The notes: generated by a model from the letters alone, not told the origin. A stretch of 64,000 nt of DNA from Candidatus Saccharimonadota bacterium (GCA_046350755.1 JAXLZV010000001.1:11510-75509), one strand, 5' to 3'; positions 5,133 to 56,422 are shown, counted from the first letter of the stretch. Numbers and translations are program-made.

Positions 5133-5427
5133 AGTGCTCCTGAAGTTTTTGCCACAGCAGTGGCGCTATGTACAATGCTACCACCAAGTAGGCGATATCT
5201 TCTATCGGCCACGAGACTATTTTGAATCCCAGTACTTTTTGCCAGTCATAGCGCACGATTGCCAGGCTAGTAAGGTAGGTATTAAAGATGACCATCGCGA
5301 AGTAGAGCAAGACGGCGAGGGCGAGACGGTGCTGGCTGTTATCGGCCCTAGGTAGCCAGCGAGTGGCTAGCAGCCAAGCTACTAGCATGAAGCCTAGGTT
5401 GAGTAATACATACGTGTATGACTTCAC
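5005..5427 (-). CDS. lycopene cyclase domain protein (heterodimeric CrtYe/Yf-type subunit); 3' end uncertain
   Basis: A core of about 100 aa with three TM helices (LLYFAMVIFNTYLTSLAIVRYDW) resembles the small lycopene-cyclase-domain subunits of C50 carotenoid clusters. The basic disordered tail overlaps the next gene's start by 128 nt. Confidence 0.5.
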   Translation of the reverse strand: MKSYTYVLLNLGFMLVAWLLATRWLPRADNSQHRLALAVLLYFAMVIFNTYLTSLAIVRYDWQKVLGFKIVSWPIEDIAYLVVALYIAPLLWQKLQEHYAKPITSSTDPTSSPSSRVTPKAQSPKRKTRPRRSTPRRSRG

Positions 5428-5804: not shown

Positions 5805-5827
5805 ATATCCATAGTATACTAGGTGAA

Positions 5828-10750: not shown

Positions 10751-10802
10751 TGCGGTAGAGCTATATTGACGAATAATGCAAAAAGGAGTACAGTAAACCT
10801 AC

Positions 10803-10822
10803 AAAGCCCCGGCGGCTTTTTT
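10803..10822 (+). terminator. weak intrinsic terminator-like hairpin
   Basis: AAGCC-CCGGC-GGCTT followed by TTTTTT, between the membrane-protein gene and secE. Confidence 0.3.
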
Positions 10823-10838
10823 AGATTACGAGAGACTT

Positions 10839-11024
10839 ATGCAGCACGTACGACGTTACATCTCCAGCTCGATTGAAGAGCTCAAACGTGTCGTCTGGCC
10901 GACCCGCCAACAAGCGATTTCGCTGACGATCATCGTTTTGGTGTTTACGGCTATTGTAGCCGCCTATCTCTCTGGTCTTGATCTGATATTCCGCAATGCT
11001 TTGCAGCGATTGCTCGCGCTCTAA
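10839..11024 (+). CDS. secE: preprotein translocase subunit SecE (short monoderm-type)
   Basis: A 61-aa single-TM protein with a conserved C-terminal helix, sitting immediately upstream of nusG as in the canonical secE-nusG-rplKA arrangement. Confidence 0.75.
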   Translation: MQHVRRYISSSIEELKRVVWPTRQQAISLTIIVLVFTAIVAAYLSGLDLIFRNALQRLLAL

Positions 11025-19100: not shown

Positions 19101-22100
19101 GAATCCTAGCTGGTAATAACCATGTTATTGCTGGCCTCTATGCCGACACCACGGCTAGTCCGGGCTGCGTGACAGCTGGTCTATTTGGTAATACTCGTGG
19201 TGCTCTCGTCCAAGACCTCAAACTAACGGATCCAGTCTTTAAGGGTGGCTATGTTGGTCTGGTAGCTACCGCCAACAATACCGACATCACTAATGTCCAA
19301 GTCTATAATGGAGCCTACGATGGTACGTCAGGTTTTGGTGGTGGTGGGATTGCTGGCTTTATGTTCTTTGATGACGCTGCTAGCCACGATCTAGCTAAGA
19401 ATAGCTTTACCGGTAGTATTGTAGCTAGTTGTGATACGAGTACTATGGGGATGATTGGTGGGTTATATAGCTATTTAGTAGCATTTGGCCAGAATACAAT
19501 CAATCTCCACGATTCCTACGCCGATGCAGATATTAGTGTGAACTCAGCTAATGCTTGTTTGGACGTAAGTGGTATTGGTGGTGGGATTGGTTATATCGTG
19601 GCTGGCAATACTGCTATGAGTGTCAATAATATTTACGCTGCCGGTAGTCAGAATGTCTCTATTACCGAAAACGCTAACGGCCAGTTCAACTACCCCCAAG
19701 GCCTCACCACCGACAGTGCTGGCAATGTCTATGTGGCCGATACTGATAACCACCGCATCCAGAAGTTTGACTCATCTGGTACTTTCATTACTAAATGGGG
19801 CACCAATGGCTCCGGCGATGGTCAGTTTAGCAATCCTCAAGGCATCGCCACCGACAGTGCGGGCAATGTCTATGTGGCCGATACTGATAACCACCGCATC
19901 CAGAAGTTTGACAGTGCTGGTACTTTTATTGCCAAGTGGGGTGGTAGAGGGGCAGCCAATGGGAAGTTCAACTACCCCCAAGGCATCACCACCGACAGCG
20001 CGGGTAATGTCTATGTGGCCGATACTGATAACCACCGCATCCAGAAGTTTGACTCATCTGGTACTTTCATTACTAAATGGGGCACCAATGGCTCCGGCGA
20101 TGGTCAGTTTAACTCTCCCACCGGCATCACCACCGACAGCGCGGGTAATGTCTATGTGGCGGATACATATAACTACCGCATCCAGAAGTTTGATAGCTCT
20201 GGAACTTTTATTACCAAATGGGGCACCAATGGCTCCGGCAACGGTCAGTTCTACTCCCCTCAAGGCCTCACCACCGACAGCGCGGGTAATGTCTATGTAG
20301 CAGATACATATAACCACCGCATCCAGAAGTTTAATAGCGCTGGCACATATATCTCGCAGTGGGGAACGAATGGCTCCGGTGACGGTCAGTTCAACCAACC
20401 CCAAGGCCTTACCACCGACAGTGCTGGCAATGTCTATGTGGCGGATACTAGTAACCACCGCATCCAGAAGTTTAATAGCTCTGGCACGTATATCTCCCAG
20501 TGGGGAAGCCAGGGTTATGTTAGCTGGACTAATATTGGTGGCCTAATTGGTGTCGCAAATTATTATTCGGCTTCCAATAGTCTAACCAACAGCTTCGCCC
20601 ATGTCGCTCAAACGATTAATGTTGGCGACCAGGTGGCCGGTGCCCTAGTCGGTGCGGCCTACTATGATACGCCACCGACTATCACCGGCAACTACGCCGA
20701 TACCACGCTGGCTGGTCGAGCCAACTGCTTTGGGGGTGGCGAGAGCGAAGACACCGCCAAATGTACTGGTATTGCTGGTCAACCCAATTATTTCTACAAC
20801 AACCATACCAACCCACCGCTTGATCAGTGGAATTTCACGGATCTTTGGGAAACCACACCAACGCTACCAGTCTTCTCAGCTGTAGCCGTCAACACTCTAA
20901 CTCCCATCTCAGCTGAGCGCCTAGCCCGCTACAATCCACCCGTTCCACCAACCCCAACCCCAGTTCCAGCTACTCCAATTAGCCCCAGCCCAACACCAGA
21001 ACCAACCCCAGATACCAGTGGTAGTCGTAGTGCTGCCATCACCCAGACTACCAACCAGACACCTCCACCCCCAGCCGAGCCGGGTGGTATCCTGGGGGTT
21101 CTAAAAGACATTGTCCGCGCCATTCCGGAACCAGTCCTGCGCAGCTTCCCCTACGTCGTGGTTGGTCTCATGGGGCTACTATCTCTAGCTATGTTGTTTG
21201 AAATGTATCGTCAGTCTCGACGCTTAGCTCAACTTAATCTCCTGCTTGCCAAACAAGCCAAAGTTGCCGAGGATCGTGATACTTTCTGGCATCTCGCTGC
21301 CAACTATCTACGCTCACCAATTACTCTCTTAGTTGGTAGTGTCGATCTGATGACTGACCCTAGTCCAAAGACTAAAGCTCAACCAACTACCGCTCCAGCT
21401 AAACTGACCCTTGGTCTGACCAGCCTGGTTCATGATATGCAGACTAAGGTCATGAAGATTATGGACCAGATCGAAACTAGCCAGAGCTTACAGGCCATTC
21501 GCTGGCCAGCTCGAACTCAGCCTCGCCACCTCTTAACTAACTGGCGTTTCTGGGTGCCCCTGACTGTCACCGGTCTACTGATTGCCCTGTCTAACTATGT
21601 CGCCCAAAACTTCCGTAACATTGAAGTCTCCACTCTTAATCTAGCCGTCCAAGCCTTGCTGTTTATTGTTGTTACCATTGCTATCTACTGGGTGGTTGGT
21701 GCTCTCGGCCTAACTCGTAGTAAGGTGACTCGGGCTCAAACTCAATTGGATCGTCAGGCTAAAGACCTAGATAAGGCTCGAATGCAGCTTATTGACGAGA
21801 CCGCCACTGTCCTATCTAGTGACATCACTCGACTAGATGCCATGCTAGCGAAGCTCCCAGCTAAGGAGCCAATGCTGCTAGCTATGCAAGAGGGAAGTCG
21901 TCGATTACATGAGATTGTATCGAGTTTCCAGCAACTGATCTTAGCTCAGAACAACCGTCTTGATACCATCTCGCCAGCTAGCGCCTCAACCGACCTTAGC
22001 CAAGCTATTGCTAGTAGCTTAAATGAACTAGCCGCCACCATTAAGTCTAAAGACATCACCGTTGTCCAGTCTGGCACCATAGCTGGAGCTGTACCTGGTA

Positions 22101-22441
22101 GTGAGCCAGTTATTAAGCGTGTTATTGGGAGTATTCTAGAGAATGCCATCCAGTTTAGCCCTAAAGGCGGTCAAGTTACCATCCAATCTCAGCAAACTGG
22201 CAGTGGTAGTAGTGTTACCATCACCGATAAGGGTCCTGGTGTGAGTAAGACTCAACAGGCACATATCTTCCAGCTCTTTACCAAAGCTGATGGCAAGAAT
22301 GCCCTACAAATGGACCATGATGGACTGGGGGTTGATCTCTATCTCGACAAGCAGATCATGCAACACTTACAGGGTGGCATTGACCTCCAGACTAGTAACC
22401 ACGGGACAGCTGTAACACTGACCTGGCCAGCAGTGGGGTAG
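16130..22441 (+). CDS. giant (2103 aa) membrane protein with 18 NHL repeats (three 6-bladed propellers), FN3, a GLUG-like beta-helix region, a Pro/Thr linker, TM helices and a C-terminal histidine-kinase-like module
   Basis: The basic N-terminal tail is followed by a signal-anchor TM (VIQAVLVLALVLSFVQFA). There are 12 plus 6 NHL repeats of about 40 aa (GNVYVADxxNHRIQKFxSxG), and an FN3 domain (LAPSNLRVEV..YDMKVSAVN). The GGLIG and GIGGGIG tracts are the GLUG-like region. After a TM segment near aa 1670 comes an H-box-like FWHLAANYLRSPITLLVG. The C-terminus has an N-box ILENAIQFSP, G1 ITDKGPGV and G2 DGLGVDLYL. Confidence 0.65.
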   Translation: MNKVRNTDPTKSTNSNLRRIHDIRHPQSSDQPTNRPRRVGRLLSWRLPNRRVLRARLVTITNKWTITTARLRQLALGGLSLSKLDLRKLSVALDPHKFSLPTLDPRKLDFYKLHPRNLSRAKLTTGAKTIHHHTKNFLHSPRAVIQAVLVLALVLSFVQFARAITPTITTQAATNLDWNKAALNGQVNDDHGEQVTETGFEYGPDTNYGDTTQATAEYKFSSIIGGALADGTTNRPGSITTDSAGNVYVADTDNHRIQKFDSSGTFITKWGTNGSGDGQFSNPQGIATDSAGNVYVADTDNHRIQKFDSAGTFIAKWGGRGAANGKFNYPQGLTTDSAGNVYVADTYNRRIQKFNSTGTYISQWGTNGSGDGQFSNPQGIATDSAGNVYVADTNNHRIQKFNSAGTYISQWGTNGSGDGQFNQPQGLTTDSAGNVYVADTSNHRIQKFDSAGTYLTQWGTGGSGDGQFYSPTGITTDSAGNVYVADRDNHRIQKFNSSGTFITKWGNYGSGDGQFDYPQGLTTDSAGNVYVADSGNNRIQKFDSTGNFITKWGKNGGDGSSGFGNGEFDYPSGLTTDSAGNVYVADTYNYRIQKFDSSGTFITKWGNPGSGDGQFYSPQGLTTDSAGNVYVADTNNHRIQKFDSSGTFITKWGNYGSGNGQFSNPQGLTTDSAGNVYVADRDNSRIQKFDSAGTYISQWGSQGSGDGQFDYPQGLTTDSAGNVYVADTNNHRIQKFDSSGTFITKWGNPGSGDGQFYEPQGLTTDSAGNVYVADRNNHRIQKFTLVANSDTFSSQIENLSCDTSYHYRAYATNASGTSYGTDQVFTTPSCVPLAPSNLRVEVQSFNSIEVVWDRPDYTGSAGIDHYIIYYRKAGTGSWQQVSSNNDAESVIVSGLEQFTSYDMKVSAVNYDGHESPATAEVSETTPRVNFGLVRNCQDLQNINNNLNVSYELVNDIDCSDTINWNAGAGFVPLGGCQYDFYSLSEPTPFKGILAGNNHVIAGLYADTTASPGCVTAGLFGNTRGALVQDLKLTDPVFKGGYVGLVATANNTDITNVQVYNGAYDGTSGFGGGGIAGFMFFDDAASHDLAKNSFTGSIVASCDTSTMGMIGGLYSYLVAFGQNTINLHDSYADADISVNSANACLDVSGIGGGIGYIVAGNTAMSVNNIYAAGSQNVSITENANGQFNYPQGLTTDSAGNVYVADTDNHRIQKFDSSGTFITKWGTNGSGDGQFSNPQGIATDSAGNVYVADTDNHRIQKFDSAGTFIAKWGGRGAANGKFNYPQGITTDSAGNVYVADTDNHRIQKFDSSGTFITKWGTNGSGDGQFNSPTGITTDSAGNVYVADTYNYRIQKFDSSGTFITKWGTNGSGNGQFYSPQGLTTDSAGNVYVADTYNHRIQKFNSAGTYISQWGTNGSGDGQFNQPQGLTTDSAGNVYVADTSNHRIQKFNSSGTYISQWGSQGYVSWTNIGGLIGVANYYSASNSLTNSFAHVAQTINVGDQVAGALVGAAYYDTPPTITGNYADTTLAGRANCFGGGESEDTAKCTGIAGQPNYFYNNHTNPPLDQWNFTDLWETTPTLPVFSAVAVNTLTPISAERLARYNPPVPPTPTPVPATPISPSPTPEPTPDTSGSRSAAITQTTNQTPPPPAEPGGILGVLKDIVRAIPEPVLRSFPYVVVGLMGLLSLAMLFEMYRQSRRLAQLNLLLAKQAKVAEDRDTFWHLAANYLRSPITLLVGSVDLMTDPSPKTKAQPTTAPAKLTLGLTSLVHDMQTKVMKIMDQIETSQSLQAIRWPARTQPRHLLTNWRFWVPLTVTGLLIALSNYVAQNFRNIEVSTLNLAVQALLFIVVTIAIYWVVGALGLTRSKVTRAQTQLDRQAKDLDKARMQLIDETATVLSSDITRLDAMLAKLPAKEPMLLAMQEGSRRLHEIVSSFQQLILAQNNRLDTISPASASTDLSQAIASSLNELAATIKSKDITVVQSGTIAGAVPGSEPVIKRVIGSILENAIQFSPKGGQVTIQSQQTGSGSSVTITDKGPGVSKTQQAHIFQLFTKADGKNALQMDHDGLGVDLYLDKQIMQHLQGGIDLQTSNHGTAVTLTWPAVG
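16846..18480 (+). repeat. NHL repeat array 1 (12 units of about 120 bp, coding)
   Basis: Tandem 120-nt coding repeats. The segment 16846..17160 is about 96% identical to 19705..20019, and 17310..17470 is identical to 20310..20470. Confidence 0.9.
19690..20500 (+). repeat. NHL repeat array 2 (6 units), near-duplicate of parts of array 1
   Basis: See above; the two duplicated segments lie at constant offsets of 2859 and 3000 bp. Confidence 0.9.
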
Positions 22442-23014: not shown

Positions 23015-23043
23015 TTGACCATCTTAATGAAACCTGTTATTAT
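23015..23043 (+). promoter_or_regulatory. sigma70-type promoter for rplJL
   Basis: TTGACC, a 17-nt spacer, then TATTAT. Confidence 0.55.
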
Positions 23044-23199
23044 GAAAAAGTACGAACCGAAGACAGGCGCTGGTTAGCTCAAGCTAAACCTTAATTTGCT
23101 CCCGAGGCGATGACGAATCTACATTTTAGATAAGTCCCACTTCATGTCTTCTTGGCTCGCTGCAAAGAAGATTTTTCATTAACAATTAAAGGAGTCAGT
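23044..23199 (+). promoter_or_regulatory. rplJ 5' leader (candidate L10(L12)4 autoregulatory leader)
   Basis: A 155-nt untranslated leader between the promoter and the AAAGGAG RBS, as in L10 leaders of other bacteria. The structure was not folded here. Confidence 0.35.
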
Positions 23200-45673: not shown

Positions 45674-46626
45674 ATGTTACTCAACAAACGAAAAAATATA
45701 AAACTCGTCGCACGCATTCTGCCCGCGATGCTGTTTTTTTACTTGCCTTTGTTCTCGGAAATAATCATGCGGATGCTGCTGCGTGTGTACCTGGTACCGG
45801 CATGGCTACCCTCACCAACACATCCATTACCGCGCCTGCAGCTGGCAGCTATAAAGTCTGGTTGCGTGTCGCATCGGCTACGCCTTCGGCGGTGAAATCT
45901 CGGGTTGAAGTAACGCCTTCGGGAGGCAGCCCGACGTGCTTTGATGCGACCAATCCATCGCCCAACTCAACTGGTTGGCAGTGGGTGAATGTCGGCACAA
46001 CCAATTTTACCGCCAGTGGTAATACCGTAAAAATCGTCGGCGTTGATGCTGGTTTTCGAGTTGATCGCTTCTTGATAGTTGCCGCGACCACCACCTGTAC
46101 GCCAAGTAACACGCGGGTGACGAGCTCTAATCCTATCGTCGAGCCTGGTGATAACTGTATCCCGGTAACCACCACCACGCCATCAAACGGCAAATCCCAG
46201 CTTTACCGTTTCTGGAGTCCGAAATTTGATAATGAACATTTTTTCACGCTTGATACGGCTGAGTATAATACGCTCCTATCAGATTCCAACTGGGTATACG
46301 AAGGCCGAAGCTTTTCAGTCGACGATTGTAAGAGTGGTACCAAGCAGTCGGTGCATCGGTTCTGGAGTCCGAAGTTTATGAACGCACACTTCTACACAGC
46401 CAACACGGCCGAGTATCAAACACTCCTCAAGGATAGTAATTGGAAATATGAGGGCGTGTCCTTCTGCGCCGATGCCGCGTCAGCCAGTGGGAACAAGCCG
46501 GTCTACCGTTTCTGGAGTCAGAAGTTTCACAACTCACACTTCTACACGACGGATTATGCTGAGTATCAAGTATTGCTCAAGGATACAAACTGGAAGTACG
46601 AAAACATCGCTTTTTACGCCTGGTAG
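45674..46626 (+). pseudogene. frameshifted (T7 tract) secreted beta-sandwich + 3x DUF5648-like-repeat protein; possible phase-variable gene
   Basis: The signal peptide (MLLNKRKNIKLVARILPAM..) is in one frame and the mature protein (MATLT..) in the +1 frame. The two join at the homopolymer TTTTTTT at 45734..45740. A T8 tract would give one ORF that is collinear with the paralog at 46800. Confidence 0.55.
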
Positions 46627-46799: not shown

Positions 46800-47651
46800 A
46801 TGAACATCAAATCATTCGTTAAAATTATCCCAGCAGTGGCGTTTGCCCTGGTGGCTTTTGTTTTTTCTGGTAGTCACGCTAAGGCGGCTAGCTGTGTACC
46901 AGGTACCGGTATGGCGACTCTCACCAATAATGCAGTAACCGCTCCAGCCGCTGGTAGCTACAAGGTCTGGATCCGTGTCTCGGCCGCCTCAGCTCTAGCC
47001 GTCAAGTCACGAGTAGAGGTCACCCCATTGGGTGGCACGGCTACTTGCTTTGAGGTCACTAACCCAGCTCCCACCACAACTGGTTGGCAGTGGGTGAACG
47101 CTGGTACGACTACGCTGACTACAACTGGTAATACCGTCAAAGTCGTCGGAGTTGATGCCGGTGTGCGCGTCGATCGCCTGATCATGGTAGCAGCGACCAG
47201 TACCTGCACTCCGAGTAACACCCGGGTAACTACCACCAGCCCCATCACCGAACCAGGAGATAACTGTATCGTAGCTGCTCCAACCACCACGGTGACAACC
47301 ACCGTCACGCCACCACCGACTTCAACCGTCACGCCACCACCAGCCGACACCACCGCACCAGTTGGTCCAGCTAGCCTCAACGCCACCAGTGCTGGGGCTA
47401 CGCAGATCAATCTGTCGTGGCCAGCCGCCACTGACAACGTCGGTGTCACCAGCTATATCCTGACTCGCAATGGTGTGCAGATCAGTGCTGGTACCAACTT
47501 GAGCTACTCCGACACTGGCCTAACCGCTGGCACCACTTACCAGTACAAGGTAGTGGCCCGTGATGCGGCGGGGAATGTGTCGACGGGGGCAAGTGTTTCG
47601 GTCGCCACGCAAAGCGCGACGGTTACGAACCCAGCTTCAAAAACGAAGTAA
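46800..47651 (+). CDS. secreted protein: signal peptide, beta-sandwich (CBM-like) domain, Thr/Pro linker, FN3 domain
   Basis: Signal peptide MNIKSFVKIIPAVAFALVAFVFSGSHAKA. The N-domain is paralogous to 45802... FN3 domain (LNATSAGATQINLSW..YQYKVVARDAAGN). Confidence 0.6.
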   Translation: MNIKSFVKIIPAVAFALVAFVFSGSHAKAASCVPGTGMATLTNNAVTAPAAGSYKVWIRVSAASALAVKSRVEVTPLGGTATCFEVTNPAPTTTGWQWVNAGTTTLTTTGNTVKVVGVDAGVRVDRLIMVAATSTCTPSNTRVTTTSPITEPGDNCIVAAPTTTVTTTVTPPPTSTVTPPPADTTAPVGPASLNATSAGATQINLSWPAATDNVGVTSYILTRNGVQISAGTNLSYSDTGLTAGTTYQYKVVARDAAGNVSTGASVSVATQSATVTNPASKTK

Positions 47652-47672
47652 GGGCGCCATAGGAAACCCTCG

Positions 47673-48752
47673 ATGCCTACCAAAACTACCCGCAAAACCC
47701 CCGCTCGTAAGAGTAACGTCGCTCGACCCAAGAGTAAGTCAGCTCTGAACGCGAAGTTTACCTTCTCGCGTTCTCAACTAGCGATCGTGATTGGTCTTGT
47801 TCTCGTCATCGGTGGCATCATTGTCTGGCGTGTACTGGCGGCTACCAGTCAAACCGAAGTTGAGACTTGGCCAGCTAGTGGCGGAAATACCAAGACCGTT
47901 GCTGACAATACCGCCTCGGGCGGGAGCTATTTGGAGTTTTTGGCGCCAACGGCGAGTACAACGGTGACGCCAGGCACTACTACACCACTTCCCGCCGGTC
48001 AACTTCGGACCTATCCGCTCCATACGAATATCAATGCCACTACCTACTGGGTTGGGGAGCTCTTTCAAAATACGCCCGATGGTAGCCAGGTTTGCTCGGC
48101 CTATAACAGCAACTGGCTATATTCGTTCTTCCGCCTCGCGCAAGTGAACAATTGCAAGGCACCGACTTCGGGCTACGTCAGTGGTTGTGATGCTGTACTC
48201 AAAAATACAGCCGGCAAATGTGATGATGTAAATAGTATTGCTAGCCTTCGTACCCCAGCGAATGGCTACTTTCCGCCGGGCCTACAGGCAATATATGAGA
48301 ATCCTTTCTATATCGATTTACCCTACGATGACTATAATCCGACCGATGCGACCGATATCACCGGTTATGCAACCCGTTGTGCCGATATCCCATGGGCTAA
48401 CGATCCTGGCTATCAAGGCAATTGCACCAATCGTAATTTCTCTTACATGAAAAATCGATGGGTTCAGGTAATGGCAAATGGTAAGACGTGCTATGGGCAG
48501 ATCGAAGACGCTGGCCCGGCCGATGATGGCAATGGTAACCCCCACTATGATGATCGCGTATATGTGTTCGGTGCAAATGATGCTCGACCAATCAATAAAT
48601 CCTACAATAGTGCCGGTATGGACATATCACCAGCACTAGGTGCGTGTTTAGGTGGGCAATTCAACTCAGATTTAAATGTGAGTTGGCGATTTGTCGATTC
48701 ACCACCTGCTGGTCCATGGACGACAATCGTAACCACTTCTGGTCCGCAGTAA
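47673..48752 (+). CDS. signal-anchored protein with shared N-module and a DPBB-like (RlpA/expansin/GH45-like) C-terminal domain
   Basis: The N-module is a basic tail plus TM plus ATSQTEVETWPASGGNTKTVADNTASGGSYLEFLAPT. The C-terminus NGKTCYGQIEDAGPADDG..GMDISPALGACLG resembles the double-psi beta-barrel of RlpA/expansins. Confidence 0.45.
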   Translation: MPTKTTRKTPARKSNVARPKSKSALNAKFTFSRSQLAIVIGLVLVIGGIIVWRVLAATSQTEVETWPASGGNTKTVADNTASGGSYLEFLAPTASTTVTPGTTTPLPAGQLRTYPLHTNINATTYWVGELFQNTPDGSQVCSAYNSNWLYSFFRLAQVNNCKAPTSGYVSGCDAVLKNTAGKCDDVNSIASLRTPANGYFPPGLQAIYENPFYIDLPYDDYNPTDATDITGYATRCADIPWANDPGYQGNCTNRNFSYMKNRWVQVMANGKTCYGQIEDAGPADDGNGNPHYDDRVYVFGANDARPINKSYNSAGMDISPALGACLGGQFNSDLNVSWRFVDSPPAGPWTTIVTTSGPQ

Positions 48753-48782
48753 TTAGCGTATTAACAAACCCAGGATACAAAT

Positions 48783-49946
48783 ATGCCCACTAAAACTACC
48801 CGTAAAACTCCCGCTCGTAAGAGCAACGTCGCTCGCCCCAAAAGTAAGTCAGCTCTGAACTCGAAGTTTACGTTTTCCAAAACTCAACTAGCGATCGTCA
48901 TTGGCCTCATCCTCGTCATCGGTGGCATCATTGTCTGGCGAGTACTGGCCGCCACCAGCCAAACTGAAGTCGAGACCTGGCCAGCCAGTGGTGGGAACAC
49001 CAAGACTGTCGCTGACAATACTGCCTCGGGTGGCAGCTATCTGGAGTTTTTGGCACCAACGGTGAGTACGACGGTAACGCCAACACCAACGTTATCTATT
49101 CCTACTGGTTACAGCCAGATATTCCTTGATAATTTTGATGGTTCCTCTCTCAATACACTGGTCTGGAAGCCTTATAATAACAACTATGGGAGCGGAAATA
49201 AGGAAGAAGAGTGTAATACGCCTAATAACGTGACGGTAAGTAATGGGTCACTTCTTATAACCGCTAAGCGCGAGAATATTGTTTGTCCGGGTACTTCGAC
49301 GAACTACAGCTTTACGTCCGCCTTCTTGGGAACTCGTGAAAATAATACGTACTTCCCGAAATTCGCACGTTATGAGATGCGAGCTAAGCTACCTCACGCC
49401 CAGGGCCTCTGGCCAGCTTTCTGGTTGCGTCACCGTAACGGATCTACCAACCCGCTAGGAGCTGAAGTCGATGTGATGGAGTATTTCCACTCCCAGGTTC
49501 CTGGTAAAACCTCATCAACTCTCCATTTAGATGGCACTTCTAATGTGGCGAAGAAGACAGTGGCTTTTGAGACTCCAACAACTACACCTGGATGGCATAC
49601 ATGGGCAGTTGAGACTAAGCCTGACATGATCGATACAACCAAGGTTAATTTTTCTTTCACATTAGATGGCACTGAATTCTTTAATATCACTCCATCCCAA
49701 AAAGCTTGGGCAACTGATGCGACAAACGGAGTTGACCCGAACCATATGTTTGATATTGCAATCAACATGGCTGTCGGAGGCAACTACGTCGGGCATCCGG
49801 ATGACGAACTTGGTTGGAGTCGTTATCTCAATAAGTGCCTTAAGCCCTATGGCGGTGCAGCACCCTGCGACGGCACAGGAATATTGCGCGCCAGCTTCCC
49901 AAGTACGTACGAGGTCGATTACGTGCGAGTATTGACCAAGAACTAA
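48783..49946 (+). CDS. signal-anchored GH16 beta-glucanase (laminarinase-like) with shared N-module
   Basis: The same N-module, then GH16 signatures WPAFWL and the catalytic EVDVME (ExDxxE). Confidence 0.65.
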   Translation: MPTKTTRKTPARKSNVARPKSKSALNSKFTFSKTQLAIVIGLILVIGGIIVWRVLAATSQTEVETWPASGGNTKTVADNTASGGSYLEFLAPTVSTTVTPTPTLSIPTGYSQIFLDNFDGSSLNTLVWKPYNNNYGSGNKEEECNTPNNVTVSNGSLLITAKRENIVCPGTSTNYSFTSAFLGTRENNTYFPKFARYEMRAKLPHAQGLWPAFWLRHRNGSTNPLGAEVDVMEYFHSQVPGKTSSTLHLDGTSNVAKKTVAFETPTTTPGWHTWAVETKPDMIDTTKVNFSFTLDGTEFFNITPSQKAWATDATNGVDPNHMFDIAINMAVGGNYVGHPDDELGWSRYLNKCLKPYGGAAPCDGTGILRASFPSTYEVDYVRVLTKN

Positions 49947-49965
49947 CATAGCCGGACTAAGTCTT

Positions 49966-51513
49966 GTGACATCCAAAACTACCCGAAAAACCTCAGGTCG
50001 CAAGACCTCTGCACGGAATAATGTGCCTCGGTCAAAACCCAATTCTAGCTTCAATGCTCCCTTCAAATTCTCTAGTAAGCAGCTCGCTATTGTTCTTGCC
50101 TTAATCCTCGTTATCGGTGGCATCATTGTCTGGCGAGTCCTAGCCGCTACCAGTCAAACCGAAGTTGAGACTTGGCCAGCCAGTGGCGGGAATACCAAGA
50201 CGGTCGCTGATAACTCTGCCTCGGGCGGGAGCTATTTGGAGTTTTTGGCGCCAACGGCGAGTACAACGGTGACGCCAGCGAGCGGATTTGTGCACCCAGG
50301 AGTATTGGTCAGTCAATCACAGCTGGATTTCGTAAAGGCCAAAATCGCGTCTGGTCAGGAGCCCTGGACGAGTGCTTTTAATAAGATGAAATCAAACTCG
50401 CTGGCGAGTAGAACGTACACACCAAGTCCGGTACCAAAACTTATGTGCTCTACGAGCGTTGGGCTTGGTGAAGGATTTCCACAGGCTGGCTGCACTGAAA
50501 TGAACCGCGATGGAGCCGCGACTTACACTCAGGCGCTGATGTATGCCTATACCGGAGATATCACCTATGCGAATAACGCCGCCAAGATTATTAATGCTTG
50601 GACTTCCACTCTCAAGGAAATCCCGTATGATCAGCCCAGGACTTCAACTGGGGCACAGGCATATTGGCAAAATTTACTGGTAGTTGGCTGGTCAACTGAG
50701 ACTATGACTCGAGGGGCCGAGATTATTCGCTATACCAGTAGCGCTATGACACCGGCCCAGATTACGCAGTCTGAAACTTGGTTGAAAGGCTTCATATATC
50801 CGTTCCTGAATAGCTATACGGCCGGCGGCAACGGGAATGGTGGCATGACCTGGACCGAGGCTATTATGAATATTGGAGTCTATACGAACGATAGAGCTAT
50901 CTATGATAAGGCAGTTGCTTGGTACAAGGTGAAAATGCCTCAGCTGATTTATCTTACCAGTGACGGCGCACGGCCACCTTTGCCGACCGATGCTAACACC
51001 GGAAAACCTTGGAGTTGGGGTACCGGTAAGGTTGATGAGCTTTGGCGCTACCCGACACAGTGGGTGAATGGCCTCGAAACGGAGACTTGTCGAGATATGG
51101 GTCATACATTTATGGGGCTGGGTCCAATGAGCAATATCGCAGAAACAGCCTACATCCAAGGGACAAATAACTTCTACGCTGACTACAAAGATCGAATGGT
51201 TGCAGCCTATGAACTCAATGCTGGCTATACGAACCAAATGCTCGATGAGATGGCGAGAAGCGGCTTAGCGACCGACAAGCCTGGATTTGATGCTATTAGT
51301 GCAAATGGGTGGATGCCGACTAATTTTCCTTGCAGTGACTTCATCTCGGGTGGTGGGAGTTCACTACTCGGCACTGAAATCGCATACAATCATTTCGCTA
51401 AGCGACTAGGGCTTTCCATGCCGAATACTAAAAAGCTTGCCGAGCGCACCCGCCCGCAAGCTGGCGGCAATCATCTATTTTTCGAATCTTTGACTCATTA
51501 CCAAGCCCCGTAG
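49966..51513 (+). CDS. signal-anchored polysaccharide-lyase-like (alginate-lyase-family-like) protein with shared N-module
   Basis: GTG start, same N-module, then a large alpha-rich domain beginning HPGVLVSQSQLDFVKAKIASGQEPW that resembles the alginate-lyase/heparinase N-terminal toroid. Low certainty. Confidence 0.45.
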   Translation: MTSKTTRKTSGRKTSARNNVPRSKPNSSFNAPFKFSSKQLAIVLALILVIGGIIVWRVLAATSQTEVETWPASGGNTKTVADNSASGGSYLEFLAPTASTTVTPASGFVHPGVLVSQSQLDFVKAKIASGQEPWTSAFNKMKSNSLASRTYTPSPVPKLMCSTSVGLGEGFPQAGCTEMNRDGAATYTQALMYAYTGDITYANNAAKIINAWTSTLKEIPYDQPRTSTGAQAYWQNLLVVGWSTETMTRGAEIIRYTSSAMTPAQITQSETWLKGFIYPFLNSYTAGGNGNGGMTWTEAIMNIGVYTNDRAIYDKAVAWYKVKMPQLIYLTSDGARPPLPTDANTGKPWSWGTGKVDELWRYPTQWVNGLETETCRDMGHTFMGLGPMSNIAETAYIQGTNNFYADYKDRMVAAYELNAGYTNQMLDEMARSGLATDKPGFDAISANGWMPTNFPCSDFISGGGSSLLGTEIAYNHFAKRLGLSMPNTKKLAERTRPQAGGNHLFFESLTHYQAP

Positions 51514-51685
51514 CGCGCACTGCTTGCCTCATTGCATCATTCATGTTAGAATAGTCTTACAAATTAAGAACGTTTATGAATTTCGGGTCTTTTTGAGTCT
51601 CATTTGAGACCTCATGTAGGGGAGCTGCCTCGCGAATTCATCAGCGAGTAAGTAGTTCAACTACAATCAGAAAGGCTCTTTTCTT

Positions 51686-52891
51686 TTGCAAAATTCATCT
51701 TCATTCCGACGCGGCCATCGTGGTCGCCCTAATTCACCGCATCGCCCCCGTTATGGCGGACAAAAACGGCGTAATAATGGCAAACAATCTATTGATCCAT
51801 CAAAGTTTGTCAACGCAGCCGTCGAAGCCAAGCTCGAAACCCCATACGAATCTAAGCATCAGTTTGCTGATTTTGGCTTTATCGCTGGCTTACAAGCTAA
51901 CCTCGATACTAAGGGGTATAAAACTCCAACTGCTATTCAGGACGGGTCTATTCCAGCCTCACTCGAGGGTAAGGATGTGATTGGTCTAGCCAATACTGGC
52001 ACCGGTAAGACGGCAGCTTTTGTTCTGCCGATCATTCATCAGCTCAAGACGACCGAAGACAAGCGTACGGCGCTGATCATCGCCCCGACGCGTGAGCTGG
52101 CTACCCAGATCGATGACGAATTTCGCGCCTTCGCAAAAGGCCTGCAGCTTTACTCGACCGTTTGTGTCGGTGGTATGAATATTCGTCAGCAAATTCAGCA
52201 GCTCAATCGCCACCCACAGGTCATTATCGGTACCCCAGGTCGCCTGAAAGACCTCGTGCAACAGCGCGCCTTAAACCTGTCGCGGGTTGGTTGGTTTGTG
52301 CTTGACGAAGCTGACCGCATGCTTGATATGGGCTTCTTGCCTGACATCAACTTCCTGATTCAGCAGCTACCAGAAAAGCGCCAATCGCTGTGCTTCTCAG
52401 CTACGATTACGCCAGAGATTTCGCGTCTCTTGGACAAGATGCTCAAAGATCCCGTCACCGTCTCGGTACGCACCACTGAAACCAGTGATCACGTCGAGCA
52501 GAACATCGTTAAAGTCAGCGGTCGCGATGAAAAACTAGCTAAGCTCCAGGAGCTCTTGGCGCAGCCAGACTTTGATCGCGTACTGGTTTTCGGCGAAACA
52601 AAATTTGGCGTCCAGCGCCTAGCTGACACCCTCTCGCGAGCGGGCATCCCATCAGAAGCCATTCACGGCAATAAGAGCCAGCCGCAGCGCCAGCGAGCCC
52701 TCAAAGCTTTCAAAGACGGACGCGTATCGGTACTCGTCGCCACAGACGTCGCGGCTCGTGGACTCGATATCCCCTTGGTCTCGCACGTGATTAACTATGA
52801 TCAGCCGCAGACCTACGATGACTATATCCACCGTATCGGCCGCACTGGTCGAGCCGGCAATCGTGGTCACGCCCTGACGTTCGTCGACTAA
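51686..52891 (+). CDS. DEAD-box ATP-dependent RNA helicase
   Basis: Q-motif region, Walker A TGTGKTAAF, DEAD in VLDEADRML, SAT, and HRIGRTGRAG; Arg-rich N-terminal tail. Confidence 0.85.
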   Translation: MQNSSSFRRGHRGRPNSPHRPRYGGQKRRNNGKQSIDPSKFVNAAVEAKLETPYESKHQFADFGFIAGLQANLDTKGYKTPTAIQDGSIPASLEGKDVIGLANTGTGKTAAFVLPIIHQLKTTEDKRTALIIAPTRELATQIDDEFRAFAKGLQLYSTVCVGGMNIRQQIQQLNRHPQVIIGTPGRLKDLVQQRALNLSRVGWFVLDEADRMLDMGFLPDINFLIQQLPEKRQSLCFSATITPEISRLLDKMLKDPVTVSVRTTETSDHVEQNIVKVSGRDEKLAKLQELLAQPDFDRVLVFGETKFGVQRLADTLSRAGIPSEAIHGNKSQPQRQRALKAFKDGRVSVLVATDVAARGLDIPLVSHVINYDQPQTYDDYIHRIGRTGRAGNRGHALTFVD

Positions 52892-52904
52892 ATATCTGAA
52901 GTAA

Positions 52905-52965
52905 AAAGAAGAACCCCCAGTGAAGTCGGAGTCATAATGACTCGTTCTTCACTGGGGGTTTTGCG
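52905..52965. terminator. bidirectional intrinsic terminator between the helicase and the convergent surface-protein gene
   Basis: A 14-bp stem GAACCCCCAGTGAAG..CTTCACTGGGGGTT, with an A-run upstream and a T-run downstream. Confidence 0.65.
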
Positions 52966-52968
52966 TGC

Positions 52969-53745
52969 TCAGTCCTTCGTGCGCAGCTTGGCCAGCTTGT
53001 CGCGGCGCTGCTGCTGTCGGCGAGCCAACGCATTCTTGCGCATTGACCAGCTGATATAGACGCAGAGCAGCCCAACAATCACCACCGTCCAAGCGATCTT
53101 CGCCTGGAGGCTAATCCAGTCTGATCCGGTGTAGGCCAGCTCTGCTACCGGTTCGGTAGCGACACTGGTCGTCGCCGGTACTGCCTCGCGCACGATGCTG
53201 GTGGCCGAGATCATCGGCTCCGGCAGGGTAGTGGAGGTAGTTGTGCTGGTGGCCACTGGATTGGTGGCAGTCGGGACAATCGAACTGGTGGTTGTAGGCA
53301 CCAGTGTGGTCGAAGTCTCGACCGGCTGGGTATCCGCCGGCTCGTGTGAGTTGCGGCAGTCCAGCGCCAGGTAAGGGCTGTACACAATCTGCACGGCGGC
53401 CTCGTCATCTTCGCGACCAGGGATAGCTGCGTAGACGATGAGTTCACCATCACCCACCTGGGGAACCAGCAACGGGAATTCGAAACTGGCCTGATCTCCA
53501 ACGGGGAAATCAATGATGTGGTGCTCGATGGCGGTGCTTTCTTCGACTGCTTGCACGTTGACCGGCTGCTGCCAGACATTTGTGATCCGCGCAACAGCGC
53601 TGACGTTACCGTCTGGAGCACAACTGGTCTGGCTCACGACGCTAATCAGCGTCGGTGAATTGGTAGCACCGGCGGGAGTGGTCAAACCACCAATTCCGCA
53701 GGTGAGAAGTAGGGCAGAGAGGATGAGCTTGAAAGGTACACGCAT
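52969..53745 (-). CDS. Thr-rich cell-surface protein with a C-terminal LAxTG sorting signal
   Basis: A signal peptide and a Thr/Ser-rich stalk, then LAYTG followed by a hydrophobic segment and a basic tail (RKNALARRQQQRRDKLAKLRTKD), which is the layout of a sortase substrate. Confidence 0.6.
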   Translation of the reverse strand: MRVPFKLILSALLLTCGIGGLTTPAGATNSPTLISVVSQTSCAPDGNVSAVARITNVWQQPVNVQAVEESTAIEHHIIDFPVGDQASFEFPLLVPQVGDGELIVYAAIPGREDDEAAVQIVYSPYLALDCRNSHEPADTQPVETSTTLVPTTTSSIVPTATNPVATSTTTSTTLPEPMISATSIVREAVPATTSVATEPVAELAYTGSDWISLQAKIAWTVVIVGLLCVYISWSMRKNALARRQQQRRDKLAKLRTKD

Positions 53746-53788
53746 AGCAGACTCCTTAGGTCTGGGGCGAATAGATGGCTCAGCTCGT

Positions 53789-53835
53789 TTTTGAGTAAAC
53801 CGTACTACTATACACGTGTTTCAATAATATGTCAA
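53789..53835 (-). promoter_or_regulatory. conserved promoter/leader motif, copy 1 (TTGACA-N17-TATAGT + AGTACGGTTTACTCAAAA)
   Basis: In gene sense: TTGACA (53830..53835 on the complement), a 17-nt spacer ending GTG, TATAGT, then the leader AGTACGGTTTACTCAAAAA. Confidence 0.5.
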
Positions 53836-53893
53836 TAGTAAGGGCTTTTAGAGTAAAAAACCCAGTCGACGAGTAATCGACTGGGCAAACGCG

Positions 53894-54565
53894 CTAGGCG
53901 CCGGTATGAAAGTAGCTAAAGAACCAACCAGCTCGTTCGTGATAGCCATCCGCGGTCAGATGAATGTCATCCCGCTCGTAGACGTCGATCCGATCACCGA
54001 GGTACGTCTGCCAGTCCAAGACTGTCATCGTTGGTATGGTGGCCGCGATTGAACGTACCAGCTTATTGAACCGCGCCGCGCATTCGGCGATCTTGCCGCG
54101 CTCGCCAAGGGTGACAAAGCTTGTCGGCAATCCATCGGTGGCGGTCATCGCGGTAAAAATGCGCCGCTCCAGCTCGGAGTCGGTCACTGGGCTCGCGCAA
54201 TCGTTCGTCCCAAGAGCGATCACGAAGACGTCAGTCTTGGGGGCGGCAGCTGCAATCAACGGCTTTGCTTCCTTGAGGGTTCGTCCGGACTTACCATCCA
54301 GATTCCAATTGAAGCCATGAGTGGACTTGAGCACATAGCTATTCGTGCCAACGGTTAGCGAGTCGCCGATCATCGTGAGATTACGATTGCCGGGCGCAGT
54401 CGTAGTCTGCAAGACTGGCTTATCATCAGCTGACCGAGCCGTCAGCTCAGCCTGCACGGATGCCGGAGTCTTTGCCGGAGCGGTAGTCTCCGCTCCCTTG
54501 GTCTGATTTGAGGCCATAGCCAGACAGACAGCGATAAAAAGGATCCAAATCACTGGACGATTCAT
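53894..54565 (-). CDS. secreted SGNH/GDSL hydrolase
   Basis: Signal peptide, then block I MIGDSLTVG, block III GTNDC and block V DDIHLTADGY. Confidence 0.65.
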   Translation of the reverse strand: MNRPVIWILFIAVCLAMASNQTKGAETTAPAKTPASVQAELTARSADDKPVLQTTTAPGNRNLTMIGDSLTVGTNSYVLKSTHGFNWNLDGKSGRTLKEAKPLIAAAAPKTDVFVIALGTNDCASPVTDSELERRIFTAMTATDGLPTSFVTLGERGKIAECAARFNKLVRSIAATIPTMTVLDWQTYLGDRIDVYERDDIHLTADGYHERAGWFFSYFHTGA

Positions 54566-54597
54566 GGGTGAGCCTTTCGCAGAGGTACAAGAAGTGG

Positions 54598-54644
54598 TTT
54601 TGAGTAAACCGTACTACGCTACACGCTATTAGACATTTTGTCAA
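54598..54644 (-). promoter_or_regulatory. conserved promoter/leader motif, copy 2 (TTGACA-N17-TAGCGT + AGTACGGTTTACTCAAAA)
   Basis: Same architecture as copy 1. Confidence 0.45.
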
Positions 54645-54647
54645 TAG

Positions 54648-55268
54648 TTAGGATAAGTCATCATCTTCGATTGAGCCGACAACCCGGCGATAAATAAAGT
54701 AGCCCAGGCTAATCAGCACCCCTACGAGGACGAGGTAGGAAAGTGGCTTGATGTTGGCGGCGATGAGCTCATATTGTTCACCCAGGACAAAGCCACCAAA
54801 ACTCAGTATGGCGCTCCAGGCTAATGCTCCAAGAAACGACAACAGCAGAAAAGGAATGAGCTTCATTTTATGGAGTCCAGCTGGAAGAGAAATGAGCGAG
54901 CGCATTCCCGGGAGCAAGCGGGCAAAAAACACGGCTGACAGGCCATGCTTCTCAAACCAATTGGCTGAACGAGTAATGTCTTTTGGTTTCAAGCCAATAT
55001 ATTTCCCATACTTTTTCACAAAAGCTAGCAAATGATGCTCCTGGAGGGCACTACCGATCGTATAAAATAAGCCGGCTCCCACCAAGGAACCAAGCGCACC
55101 GGCGACGATCACACCGTAGATATTGAGCTGACCACGGTAGGCTGCATAGCCGCCAAACGGCAAAATCAGCTCAGAGGGAAGGGGAGGGAAAATAGTCTCG
55201 ATAAACATGGCCAGGAATATCCCAAGATAGCCAAAATCGGCCACGATGTTGGTAATCGTATCGGTCAT
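54648..55268 (-). CDS. DedA-family membrane protein
   Basis: YLGIFLAMFIETIFPPLPSELILPFGGY is the DedA/SNARE-associated signature. Confidence 0.75.
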   Translation of the reverse strand: MTDTITNIVADFGYLGIFLAMFIETIFPPLPSELILPFGGYAAYRGQLNIYGVIVAGALGSLVGAGLFYTIGSALQEHHLLAFVKKYGKYIGLKPKDITRSANWFEKHGLSAVFFARLLPGMRSLISLPAGLHKMKLIPFLLLSFLGALAWSAILSFGGFVLGEQYELIAANIKPLSYLVLVGVLISLGYFIYRRVVGSIEDDDLS

Positions 55269-55510
55269 TAGGGCTTGTCCTGCTTACGCCGGATGAGCTT
55301 TTTGGAGATATTCTTTGCCGAGGTCTCAAGCTTTTGCTTCCAGTGGTGTGCCCAGGCAAATTCGGTGGCGAGGATCGCCAATCCAGCTATCATCAAAACG
55401 ATGCCGGGACCGGGGATACCGGGAAAGGAGAGGAGCAATCCTGCCACAAAGACAGCTACGCCAATAATGAAGATGAGGGTTTTTTTCGTTGCCCGGGCAA
55501 TATGTTTCAT
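55268..55510 (-). CDS. small PGPGW-family transmembrane protein
   Basis: The start is reset to MKHIARATKK after an AAGGAG RBS; GIPGPGIVLMIAGLAILATEFAWA. Confidence 0.5.
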   Translation of the reverse strand: MKHIARATKKTLIFIIGVAVFVAGLLLSFPGIPGPGIVLMIAGLAILATEFAWAHHWKQKLETSAKNISKKLIRRKQDKP

Positions 55511-55622
55511 CTCCTTATTGTAGCAAATGATTGATTGATTCTGCTCACGCTTTACATATCTAGCGTAGGAGAAAATAATGAGGTCAAACAAAGTAGGGAT
55601 GTTAATTATAAGGAGAATCATC

Positions 55623-55946
55623 ATGAAGACAATTACTATTAATCGCTTGAATGTCAGCTCGGTGGCCAAAGTCGTTGGATTTTACCAGGCAGTCATCGGC
55701 TTTGTAGTCGGCTTGGTCGTAACGATTGGTTCTGCAGCCCGCATTTTTTCTGAATCATCAGGCTTTTTGCAGGCCTTTGGCATCAGCGCCGCGGTGGCAG
55801 GCTTTGCAGTATTACTGTTCCCACTGGTGGCATTTGTCATTGGCTGGGTTCAGGGTGTAGTTTTGGCTTTCATCCTAAACGTCGTGTTTAAAGAATCAAA
55901 AGGACTCGAAATCGAGGTCGAAGAGGCTCCGCTCAAAAAGTCCTAA
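55623..55946 (+). CDS. small membrane protein, hypothetical
   Basis: The start is reset to MKTITINRL after an AAGGAGA RBS; three TM helices. Confidence 0.4.
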   Translation: MKTITINRLNVSSVAKVVGFYQAVIGFVVGLVVTIGSAARIFSESSGFLQAFGISAAVAGFAVLLFPLVAFVIGWVQGVVLAFILNVVFKESKGLEIEVEEAPLKKS

Positions 55947-56158
55947 CCACTGACTGGGGCCGAACCGAACACCTGTTTGCCCCGACAGTTCGCTTTTTGA
56001 CCAAAGCGTGGTATACTAGTGCTATCTAGAAGCACGTCCTTGTGGCGTGTCGACTCGCCGACGTGAGACTCCCAACCTCCCGAAGTGCGATTCTCATTCC
56101 AGAGTAGAGCAGTAACGGGTGCCAGACGATTCGTAAGTCGGTAGAAGTAGGAGAAAGA

Positions 56159-56422
56159 ATGTCAGCTAAGCTTTTTGTGGGATCACTCCCATATAGCACA
56201 ACAGATGAAGAATTGCGTGAGATGTTTGCCGGTGTCGGCACCGTCGAAAGTGCGAAAGTTATTTTCGACCGGGACACTCAGCGCTCGAAAGGCTTCGGCT
56301 TTGTCGAATTGTCTTCAGAAGAAGAAGCGCAAGCTGCTATCAAGCAGTTTGACGGCACTGAAATGGGCGGTCGTCGTATCGTCGTCAACATTGCCCGTCC
56401 GATGACGAATCGTCGCGACTAA
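56159..56422 (+). CDS. RRM-type RNA-binding protein
   Basis: RNP-2 LFVGSL and RNP-1 KGFGFVEL. 87 aa. Confidence 0.8.
   Translation: MSAKLFVGSLPYSTTDEELREMFAGVGTVESAKVIFDRDTQRSKGFGFVELSSEEEAQAAIKQFDGTEMGGRRIVVNIARPMTNRRD

Follow-up and report, generated by a model that had tools for sequence, protein, structure and literature searches.

A shared leader and hairpin tag on three tandem Candidatus Saccharibacteria genes for putative exported glycan-active enzymes

Long conserved leaders that recur, within one lineage, on surface or secreted proteins of varied function are represented by the YSIRK-G/S and KxYKxGKxW signal peptides and by the autotransporter ESPR, while the dockerin of the dockerin-cohesin pair (cellulosome) is a small conserved module found on glycan-active heads of many unrelated kinds. 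Tandem arrays in which a constant N-terminus is combined with unrelated C-terminal heads are known from polymorphic toxin, Rhs and CDI systems, where recombination within the constant part exchanges the heads between strains. Like other Patescibacteria, Saccharibacteria live on host bacteria to which they are attached, and the delivery and positioning of their extracellular enzymes are, to the best of our knowledge, little understood. Here we describe three genes of a Candidatus Saccharibacteria bacterium, g1 to g3, that share features with all of these systems. They lie in a 64-kb stretch of DNA, hereafter the window, together with two upstream genes, u1 and u2:

45674-46626, + strand: u1, secreted; CBM35-like domain without its first strands, then DUF5648 repeats
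46800-47651, + strand: u2, signal peptide, CBM35-like domain without its first strands, then fn3
47673-48752, + strand: g1, leader, hairpin, DPBB-like head of an uncharacterised family; 359 aa
47673-47840, + strand: g1 leader (direct reading; site statistics)
47673-47774, + strand: g1 basic n-region, 34 aa (direct reading)
47775-47840, + strand: g1 hydrophobic h-region and VLA↓A site (direct reading)
47841-47939, + strand: g1 hairpin tag ATSQTEVETWPASGGNTKTVADNTASGGSYLEF (AF2 strands, hairpin HMM, profile A7)
47940-47972, + strand: g1 linker LAPTASTTVTP, directly after the hairpin
48006-48752, + strand: conserved family core of the g1 head, starting at RTYPLHT (invariant columns, alignment A4)
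48489-48518, + strand: CYGQIEDAGP in the g1 head (alignment A4)
48783-49946, + strand: g2, leader, hairpin, linker, GH16 head
48783-48950, + strand: g2 leader
48951-49049, + strand: g2 hairpin
49215-49700, + strand: GH16 Pfam stretch of g2 (PF00722)
49464-49481, + strand: EVDVME in g2 (aa 228-233)
49966-51513, + strand: g3, GTG start; leader, hairpin, linker, PF05426 lyase head
49966-50145, + strand: g3 leader with diverged n-region
50146-50244, + strand: g3 hairpin
50494-50943, + strand: lyase Pfam stretch of g3 (PF05426)

Three heads behind one N-terminus

The three open reading frames lie on one strand, with coordinates exactly as given in an earlier note on this DNA, and are separated by gaps of only 30 nt (g1-g2) and 19 nt (g2-g3). 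They can be aligned unambiguously over the N-terminal ~100 aa, while the remainder is not alignable, which bears out the note's description of tandem genes with a common N-terminus and different heads. The identity of 85-95% claimed there applies to g1 and g2 (95% for the protein, 85-88% for the DNA all along the shared part) but is somewhat overstated for g1 and g3, which share 78% of their residues. Along the DNA, the g1/g3 identity rises from just 61% over the basic tail through 75% (hydrophobic segment) and 92% (hairpin) to 100% for the linker, and the identity pattern along the shared part of the three genes is a mosaic. Over a 55-codon core made up of h-region and hairpin, dS reached 0.75-0.88 at a dN of 0.008-0.042 (dN/dS ~0.01-0.06); the three copies are old and their protein is almost invariant, and purifying selection keeps the protein sequence of the module nearly unchanged in this genome. 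Neither tblastn nor the hairpin HMM found a further copy in the window, which covers about 10% of the genome. The end of u2 lies 21 nt upstream of g1, no promoter-like site was seen between u2 and g3, and g1-g3 are probably co-transcribed with u2. As for the dedicated secretion system that had been envisaged for the module, nothing of that kind is encoded nearby, judging from the gene table of the 99.76% identical L007 and from Pfam.

The head of g2 matches PF00722 (38.9 bits, cut-off 22, E 8e-10) and carries the motifs WPAFWL (aa 210-215) and EVDVME, the latter of the form E-x-D-x-x-E, which is the catalytic motif of GH16. Among solved structures, the laminarinase 2vy0, an endo-beta-1,3-glucanase, scores best (2.8e-20), with 25 further GH16 chains, and the NCBI product name of g2 is 'glycoside hydrolase family 16 protein', so that the proposed GH16 laminarinase-type head is confirmed. 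The head of g3 matches PF05426 (Alginate_lyase; 46.9 bits, cut-off 22.2, E 3.3e-12). Phmmer found no solved relative of this head, and the lyase family profile reaches PL5 A1-III in a weak match (E 8e-4, over 24 residues). In P0247, a homologue 43% identical to g3, the AF2 head has a pLDDT above 90, and the model resembles PL5, PL17 and heparinase II folds in Foldseek (PL17 7bjt, 3.7e-8; PL5 1qaz, TMt 0.65). An alpha/alpha toroid fold is thus predicted for the g3 head by way of this homologue, and together with the Pfam match it upholds the earlier lyase-like reading.

The head of g1 has no match in Pfam or NCBIfam, and its family profile gave no meaningful match among PDB sequences. Foldseek searches of the PDB with the AF2 model (pLDDT 85) returned kiwellin, expansin and other DPBB proteins at the top (prob 0.99, E of at least 3e-3); the best 25 matches were almost all DPBB, at a query-normalised TM of at most 0.22. 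The DPBB-like head suggested earlier thus has tentative support at the level of fold, and none as a sequence family in either database. Wall-active proteins with the DPBB fold include expansin, RlpA, GH45 and GH75-like members. The model points to a DPBB-like domain of a large family (at least 678 homologues) that has neither a Pfam entry nor a characterised relative. If specificities are taken from family membership, as they are here, the three heads would depolymerise beta-1,3-glucan, an acidic polysaccharide and wall-type glycan outside the cell, which may serve nutrition or host interaction; host wall, fungal glucan and biofilm are candidate targets. That g1-g3 are three exported glycan-active enzymes belongs to our best explanation of the locus, which we hold to be reasonably probable.

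Leader and hairpin

We propose that the proteins are built of four pieces, of which the first would be a lineage-typical Sec signal peptide with an unusually long n-region rich in Lys, Arg, Ser and Thr, an h-region of ~17-22 aa and an S/V-x-A↓A SPase I site. The site in the window reads VLA↓ATSQ, and its surroundings show the n-, h- and c-regions and follow the -3,-1 rule of a Sec type I signal peptide. Of 52 hairpin proteins, 47 have Ala at -1; at -3, 43 have S, T, V or A, and 47 a small or neutral residue (I and L included). The n-region has a median of ~20 aa across these proteins versus 38-42 aa in the window copies by the same count. By such sequence rules, on which the cleavage reading rests, the shared segment is probably a cleavable Sec signal peptide and not a membrane anchor, since a conserved SPase-I-type site closes it; this speaks against the 'signal-anchor' of the earlier note. 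The note's own counter-possibility, an ordinary signal peptide family, proved half right: the long basic leader is indeed a lineage-wide style of signal peptide, but it is followed by a conserved 33-aa module that is not ordinary.

An uncleaved signal anchor nevertheless has to be weighed, albeit as an unlikely alternative. The tail would then stay in the cytoplasm, the hydrophobic segment would cross the membrane and hairpin plus linker would form a stalk, such that the tiny epibiont displays the enzymes on its surface where it touches its host. The n-region of 34-38 aa with its ~10 Lys/Arg fits the positive-inside rule, and residues 33-56 form one helix in the AF2 model. Moreover, the h-region equals the hairpin in conservation: at a dS of ~0.8 it shows hardly any non-synonymous change, which is unusual for a disposable signal peptide. 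Together with the basic tail, this strong conservation would also be compatible with a type II anchor that is not cleaved. Against this stand the conserved x-A↓A-T-P site that follows directly and a hydrophobic run of just 17 residues in the window copies. Furthermore, other secreted proteins of the window, namely u2 and the product of 52969-53745, have ordinary short signal peptides, so Sec/SPase processing appears to be normal in this genome.

After the putative cleavage site come a 33-residue beta-hairpin and a Thr/Pro linker, which would be the second and third pieces in front of the catalytic head as the fourth. The hairpin has the consensus AATPxxSxExExGTxxGxAxxxxDxxASGGxAVKFG; in g1 it matches the hairpin HMM at 2e-11, and AF2 places strands at 73-77 and 85-89 (pLDDT ~80). 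The isolated hairpin has no Pfam match, the N-terminus has none in NCBIfam, and the conserved 33-aa module is described by neither; nothing on the hairpin motif was found in the literature. The matches of hairpin profile A7 in CBM35 modules fall on the N-terminal strands (7bys 305-332; 2wz8 19-38); they are weak (E 0.03-0.5), and what supports them is that those at the top are placed consistently. The complete CBM35 beta-sandwich of ~130 aa is absent from g1-g3, which hold the N-terminal hairpin only, and the hairpin may descend from the first two strands of such a sandwich. We surmise that its function comes into play once the protein has been exported, as in docking, retention or export competence. 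A tag for docking or retention is the foremost candidate, for which AlphaFold gave no support in cis.

The same unit occurs well beyond the window. Among the best-scoring 120 homologues per head family, the hairpin HMM found it in 15 of the head-1 family and four of GH16 (13 and four by a stricter regular expression), and 28-35 of the 150 lyase-family representatives listed carry it as well. It also precedes a Beta_helix head in L001, a fourth head of no known family in L002 (no Pfam match and no PDB sequence match) and, in L004, the heads of three genes within 21 kb, which match nothing in Pfam. There are thus at least seven hairpin-bearing heads, among which no pairwise BLASTP similarity was seen, in agreement with the earlier view of a modular N-terminus on unrelated polysaccharide-active heads. 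A copy at 42% identity was found in another Saccharibacteria MAG, and the motif in dozens of distant proteins. A word-index search with the 100-aa module returned a single fragment, which is no measure of rarity because it missed module-bearing proteins, namely P0030 and the window's own. Leader plus hairpin is probably an ancient unit across the lineage that was joined to many unrelated heads.

Docking, duplication and recombination

A specific form of docking, which we judge rather improbable, would have the hairpin, as freed strands 1-2 of a CBM35, complement the CBM35-like domains of u1 and u2, thereby tethering the enzyme heads to scaffold proteins that bear DUF5648 or fn3; in P0245-type lyases it could also run in cis. 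In u1, Pfam detects DUF5648 (1e-33) and an HMM of the remainder domain matches at 3.7e-33; the gene is frameshifted in the window at a T7 run (45734-45740), where L007 has T8 and encodes an intact 317-aa protein. In u2, Pfam detects fn3. Remainder profile A8 matches residues 40-125 of the 127 of CBM35 2vzp and residues 44-120 of CBM6 1uxz, and on one solved CBM35, 2wz8, the hairpin and u1/u2-type profiles are complementary (19-38 and 52-135). In the window, L002 and L003, genes of the u1/u2 type immediately precede hairpin genes, but none is near those of L001, L004, L005 and L010. In P0027, P0134 and P0135, the place of the hairpin, between signal peptide and head, is taken by a type I dockerin, and the very strong purifying selection on the hairpin would also fit docking.

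The hairpin was present in 11/11 lyase relatives with a C-terminal remainder domain versus 24/101 without (Fisher p = 8e-7, for phylogenetically non-independent sequences). This significance is partly circular, as degenerate N-termini, homologous by hhalign, had been added to the HMM, which was thus partly trained on those sequences (independent hhalign support, 95.4%); a first test with an HMM lacking the actinobacterial-type sequences gave 4/11 versus 25/139 (p = 0.22, not significant). In addition, the remainder domain of P0247 folds alone in the AF2 model (pLDDT 84-94), and docking of the hairpin into this C-terminal CBM35-like domain in cis is unsupported, because the hairpin itself reaches a pLDDT of ~42-60. 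Cys pairs of their own, found in the hairpins of some relatives, suggest a self-contained unit.

That the likeness arose incidentally, through recent events of tandem duplication or gene conversion, as a resemblance of 5' ends without functional meaning, is very improbable: the genes are in tandem, and the 92-100% DNA identity of hairpin and linker between g1 and g3 suggests past conversion, but the high synonymous divergence of the core at its low dN/dS largely refutes a recent origin and rules it out as the sole cause, and the presence of the module in the other MAG and of its motif in distant proteins stands against it too.

We favour instead an old exported unit under selection, at which recombination changes the set of heads between strains, as the comparison of L002 and L003 with the window bears out. 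L003 corresponds to the window minus the g1 head, g2 and the g3 tail, with the junction inside the module and the lyase gene alone left; a simple recent crossover was considered, for which the junction does fall in the module, albeit at a point that could not be placed exactly as the copies differ by 8-15%. L002 carries an extra module gene, that with the fourth head, between u1 and u2. Being repeated in tandem, the module can serve as recombination homology, and exchange at the repeated leader would add, delete or re-head genes from strain to strain.

Meaning and comparison with known systems

A leader and tag recognisable in sequence would allow the secreted glycan-active proteins of this lineage to be listed simply, including heads without a known family such as those of the g1 family, L002 and L004. 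From gain and loss at the repeated leader one sees how these genomes alter their enzyme set, and perhaps also how genes acquired from Actinomycetes obtain a native export signal. If the tag is a docking element, enzymes would be assembled on a new principle, and protein engineering would gain a useful small tag. Should the split-CBM35 idea hold, Saccharibacteria would assemble interchangeable enzyme heads on scaffold proteins in the manner of donor-strand complementation in pili, which would be a minimal, previously unknown counterpart of cohesin-dockerin.

As in the YSIRK-G/S, KxYKxGKxW and ESPR families, a long conserved leader precedes varied proteins, but g1-g3 contain none of those motifs, NCBIfam, which holds such signal models, does not match their N-terminus, and their conservation runs 33 aa into the mature protein, over a structured hairpin. 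The tandem array with its constant N-terminus is reminiscent of polymorphic toxin, Rhs and CDI systems; in contrast to these, the heads are glycan-active folds and not toxins, no immunity genes are present, and each copy is complete with its own start, the constant part being merely a leader. Relatives of the heads by fold or family are the GH16 laminarinases, the PL5/PL17-type alginate lyases and the DPBB proteins (expansin, kiwellin, GH75-like), although no described family includes the g1 head and the characterised PL families are only distant relatives of the lyase head. The likeness to dockerins extends to position, as a type I dockerin (PF00404) stands where the hairpin would be in some head-1 and GH16 homologues; however, the hairpin has 33 aa and no EF-hand calcium repeats, PF00404 does not match g1-g3, and no cohesin was found, u1 and u2 being hypothesised partners only. 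With ~33 of the ~130 residues of a CBM35 or CBM6, the g1-g3 part is not itself a CBM, and in some lyase relatives the catalytic domain lies between the two parts; still, the hairpin corresponds to strands 1-2, and the domain of u1 and u2 to the remaining strands, of the solved modules.

Gene array and its heads

The array consists of five genes on one strand, with the three downstream genes (g1 to g3) sharing an N-terminus of about 100 residues ahead of different C-terminal domains, the heads:

45674-46626 (open frame; listed ORF 45802-46626), same strand as the rest: u1, CBM35-like domain and DUF5648
46800-47651, same strand: u2, CBM35-like domain and fn3
47673-48752, same strand: g1, DPBB-like head
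48783-49946, same strand: g2, GH16 head
49966-51513, same strand, GTG start: g3, PF05426 lyase head

Since the gaps are short (u2-g1 21 nt, g1-g2 30 nt, g2-g3 19 nt) and a consensus scan found no promoter-like site between these genes, u2-g1-g2-g3 are probably transcribed as a single unit; the same scan, which relied on the consensus only, placed promoter-like sites ahead of u1 and of u2. NCBI annotates u2 as an fn3 protein, g2 as a GH16 protein and g3 as an alginate lyase family protein. All five genes are also present in a locus (L007, assembly GCA_041907385.1) that is 99.76% identical to the window. There, u1 carries a T8 run and encodes an intact 317-aa protein, whereas in the window a T7 run at 45734-45740, in the part encoding the signal peptide, shifts the start codon out of frame. 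Of the two forms, the intact one occurs on 38 contigs of the protein collection and the truncated 274-aa one on 4; the T7/T8 difference reflects an assembly error or, alternatively, slipped-strand phase variation.

The GH16 and lyase assignments of the earlier note were borne out. The product of g2 is predicted to be a laminarinase-type GH16 enzyme, as its PF00722 score exceeds the cut-off, the EVDVME motif is found and 26 solved GH16 chains are matched (top 2vy0, 2.8e-20). That of g3 matches PF05426, and a representative library contains 2526 relatives of it (E <= 1e-3); for one of 43% identity (P0247), the AF2 model matches PL17, PL5 (A1-III, Smlt1473) and heparinase II folds, while by sequence the g3 family matches PL5 weakly even at profile level. 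For g1, the double-psi beta-barrel call found tentative support at the level of the fold but none from sequence. Its head has no relative in Pfam, NCBIfam or PDB sequence searches, and its family (678 matches) spans Saccharibacteria, Thermoleophilia and Actinomycetes, Streptomyces, Arthrobacter and Salana among them. The AF2 model (pLDDT 85) matches almost exclusively double-psi beta-barrels, including kiwellin, expansins, Pa4485, loosenin and a GH75 viral chitosanase, with high probability and weak E-values.

Strain differences among relatives fall exactly at the shared module. In one locus (L003; 1-900 corresponds to window 47049-47948 and 751-6900 to 50104-56271), u2 runs straight into a single gene that joins a g1/g2-type tail to the g3 head; neither the g1 head nor g2 is present. 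In another (L002), a gene with the module and a fourth head lies between u1 and u2; at 999-2516 it encodes a 505-aa protein with the same leader and hairpin, and its head, for which neither Pfam nor PDB sequences gave a match, is by eye a possible TIM-barrel glycosidase. The local array is read as an exported set of predicted glycan-active enzymes that varies between strains.

Other features of the window

3045-9244: carotenoid-like gene set, comprising a prenyltransferase fused to a GT2 glycosyltransferase (3045-5132, minus strand), an amine-oxidase/phytoene-desaturase-like protein, a polyprenyl synthetase and a phytoene/squalene synthase
12140-13099: ribosomal protein L1 ORF with about 115 additional N-terminal residues ahead of the Pfam domain
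16130-22441, plus strand: 2103-aa ORF, numerous NHL/ScyF-like beta-propeller repeats (NF035926, 8 stretches), histidine-kinase domain at the C-terminus
23039-23186: L10 leader RNA (RF00557, 46.4 bits)
52969-53745, minus strand: secreted protein; its signal peptide is short and ordinary, one region is rich in Thr/Ser/Pro, and the C-terminus has a LAYTG motif, then a hydrophobic stretch and a basic tail

The carotenoid-like set is unexpected for a small episymbiont genome, and the 2103-aa sensor is unusually large for a reduced one. The listed start of L1 is possibly too far upstream. The LAYTG protein has no Pfam match and looks like a sortase substrate of the LAxTG type.

The shared N-terminal module

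The common N-terminus described in the earlier note is real: the initial ~100 residues of g1 to g3 can be aligned and the remainder cannot, with protein identities of 95% (g1/g2) and 78% (g1/g3). In order, the module contains:

n-region of 34-38 aa, rich in Lys/Arg/Ser/Thr
hydrophobic segment QLAIVIGLVLVIGGIIVW
RVLA/ATSQ
33-aa segment ATSQTEVETWPASGGNTKTVADNTASGGSYLEF, modelled by AF2 as a beta-hairpin (strands 73-77 and 85-89, pLDDT about 80)
linker LAPTASTTVTP

DNA identity along the module is a mosaic (basic tail, hydrophobic segment, hairpin, linker):
g1/g2: 85%, 88%, 86%, 88%
g1/g3: 61%, 75%, 92%, 100%

Over a 55-codon core (h-region and hairpin), dS is 0.75-0.88 and dN 0.008-0.042, and therefore the copies are old and their protein sequence is very strongly constrained. 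Recent duplication as the cause of their similarity is ruled out by these dS values, while the 92-100% DNA identity of g1 and g3 in hairpin and linker points to additional past conversion between them.

A search of the 64-kb window for further copies found no fourth. The portable-module reading proved right, and wider than first thought, as the motif occurs on seven mutually dissimilar heads (no similarity in pairwise BLASTP) and in other genomes. In a Saccharibacteria MAG, a 692-aa Beta_helix protein carries the module with 42% identity. In related organisms, homologues of each of the three heads show the hairpin motif after a basic n-region and an h-region, e.g., YRTYA/ATPTASFQAEAGTRSGNATVVSDTGASGSSAVKF for the g1 head and IAQA/AVTSISVEPE...DAQASNGSYILFG for GH16, and many lyase representatives carry it too; the consensus of 38 aligned sequences is AATPxxSxExExGTxxGxAxxxxDxxASGGxAVKFG. 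A Saccharibacteria-like contig (L004, GCA_964513385.1) has three hairpin genes with differing heads within 21 kb, two of which (634-3486 and 9938-10987) have beta-helix-like heads without a Pfam match. Because actinobacterial members of the g1-head family lack the hairpin, the tag follows lineage rather than head.

Of 52 hairpin proteins, 47 have Ala immediately ahead of the motif, 43 have S/T/V/A at position -3 (47 have a small or neutral residue there, counting I and L) and 46 have Ala or Ser at position +1; the hydrophobic run has a median of 19 aa. This corresponds to a classical SPase I pattern, which makes it reasonably likely that the leader is a cleavable signal peptide and the anchoring interpretation of the earlier note probably wrong. 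An uncleaved anchor is possible, given the very basic tail and the unusually high conservation of the h-region. Cleavage of the signal peptide would put the hairpin at the extreme N-terminus of the mature enzyme.

Origin of the hairpin

The top PDB matches of the hairpin profile, at weak E-values of 0.03-0.5, are N-terminal strands of CBM35 (7bys 305-332, 2wz8 19-38) and other binding modules. Directly after their signal peptides, u1 and u2 share a domain of ~120 aa whose profile covers all of CBM35/CBM6 but about the first 40 residues (2vzp 40-125 of 127 at 4.5e-4; 1uxz 44-120; 2wz8 52-135), as expected of a predicted CBM35 minus its first strands. Among the matches listed, 11 lyase representatives carry such a domain C-terminal to the head; an N-terminal hairpin homologue is found in 11/11 of these versus 24/101 without the domain (p = 8e-7, subject to phylogenetic non-independence and some circularity). 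For the 8 of these 11 N-termini outside the hairpin profile, hhalign gave a probability of 95.4% (E 1.8e-8). As hairpin and u1/u2-type domain flank the lyase head in all 11, the arrangement suggests that an ancestral CBM35 was interrupted by a catalytic domain, and that the orphan hairpins of g1 to g3 are its remnant.

Given this origin, the hairpin might complement the u1/u2 domains in trans as a split CBM35. A docking role would fit the type I dockerin (PF00404) found between signal peptide and head, the hairpin's usual slot, in three homologues of g1 and g2 (P0027, P0134, P0135). However, in the P0247 model the C-terminal domain is confident while the hairpin reaches only pLDDT about 42-60, and hairpin genes at four loci of other genomes lack a u1/u2-type neighbour; we consider trans complementation improbable.

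As a whole, the arrangement is of a known type, in which secreted enzymes bear a leader or tag specific to their lineage; the undescribed element of this system is a conserved, apparently CBM35-derived hairpin that accompanies the signal peptide.
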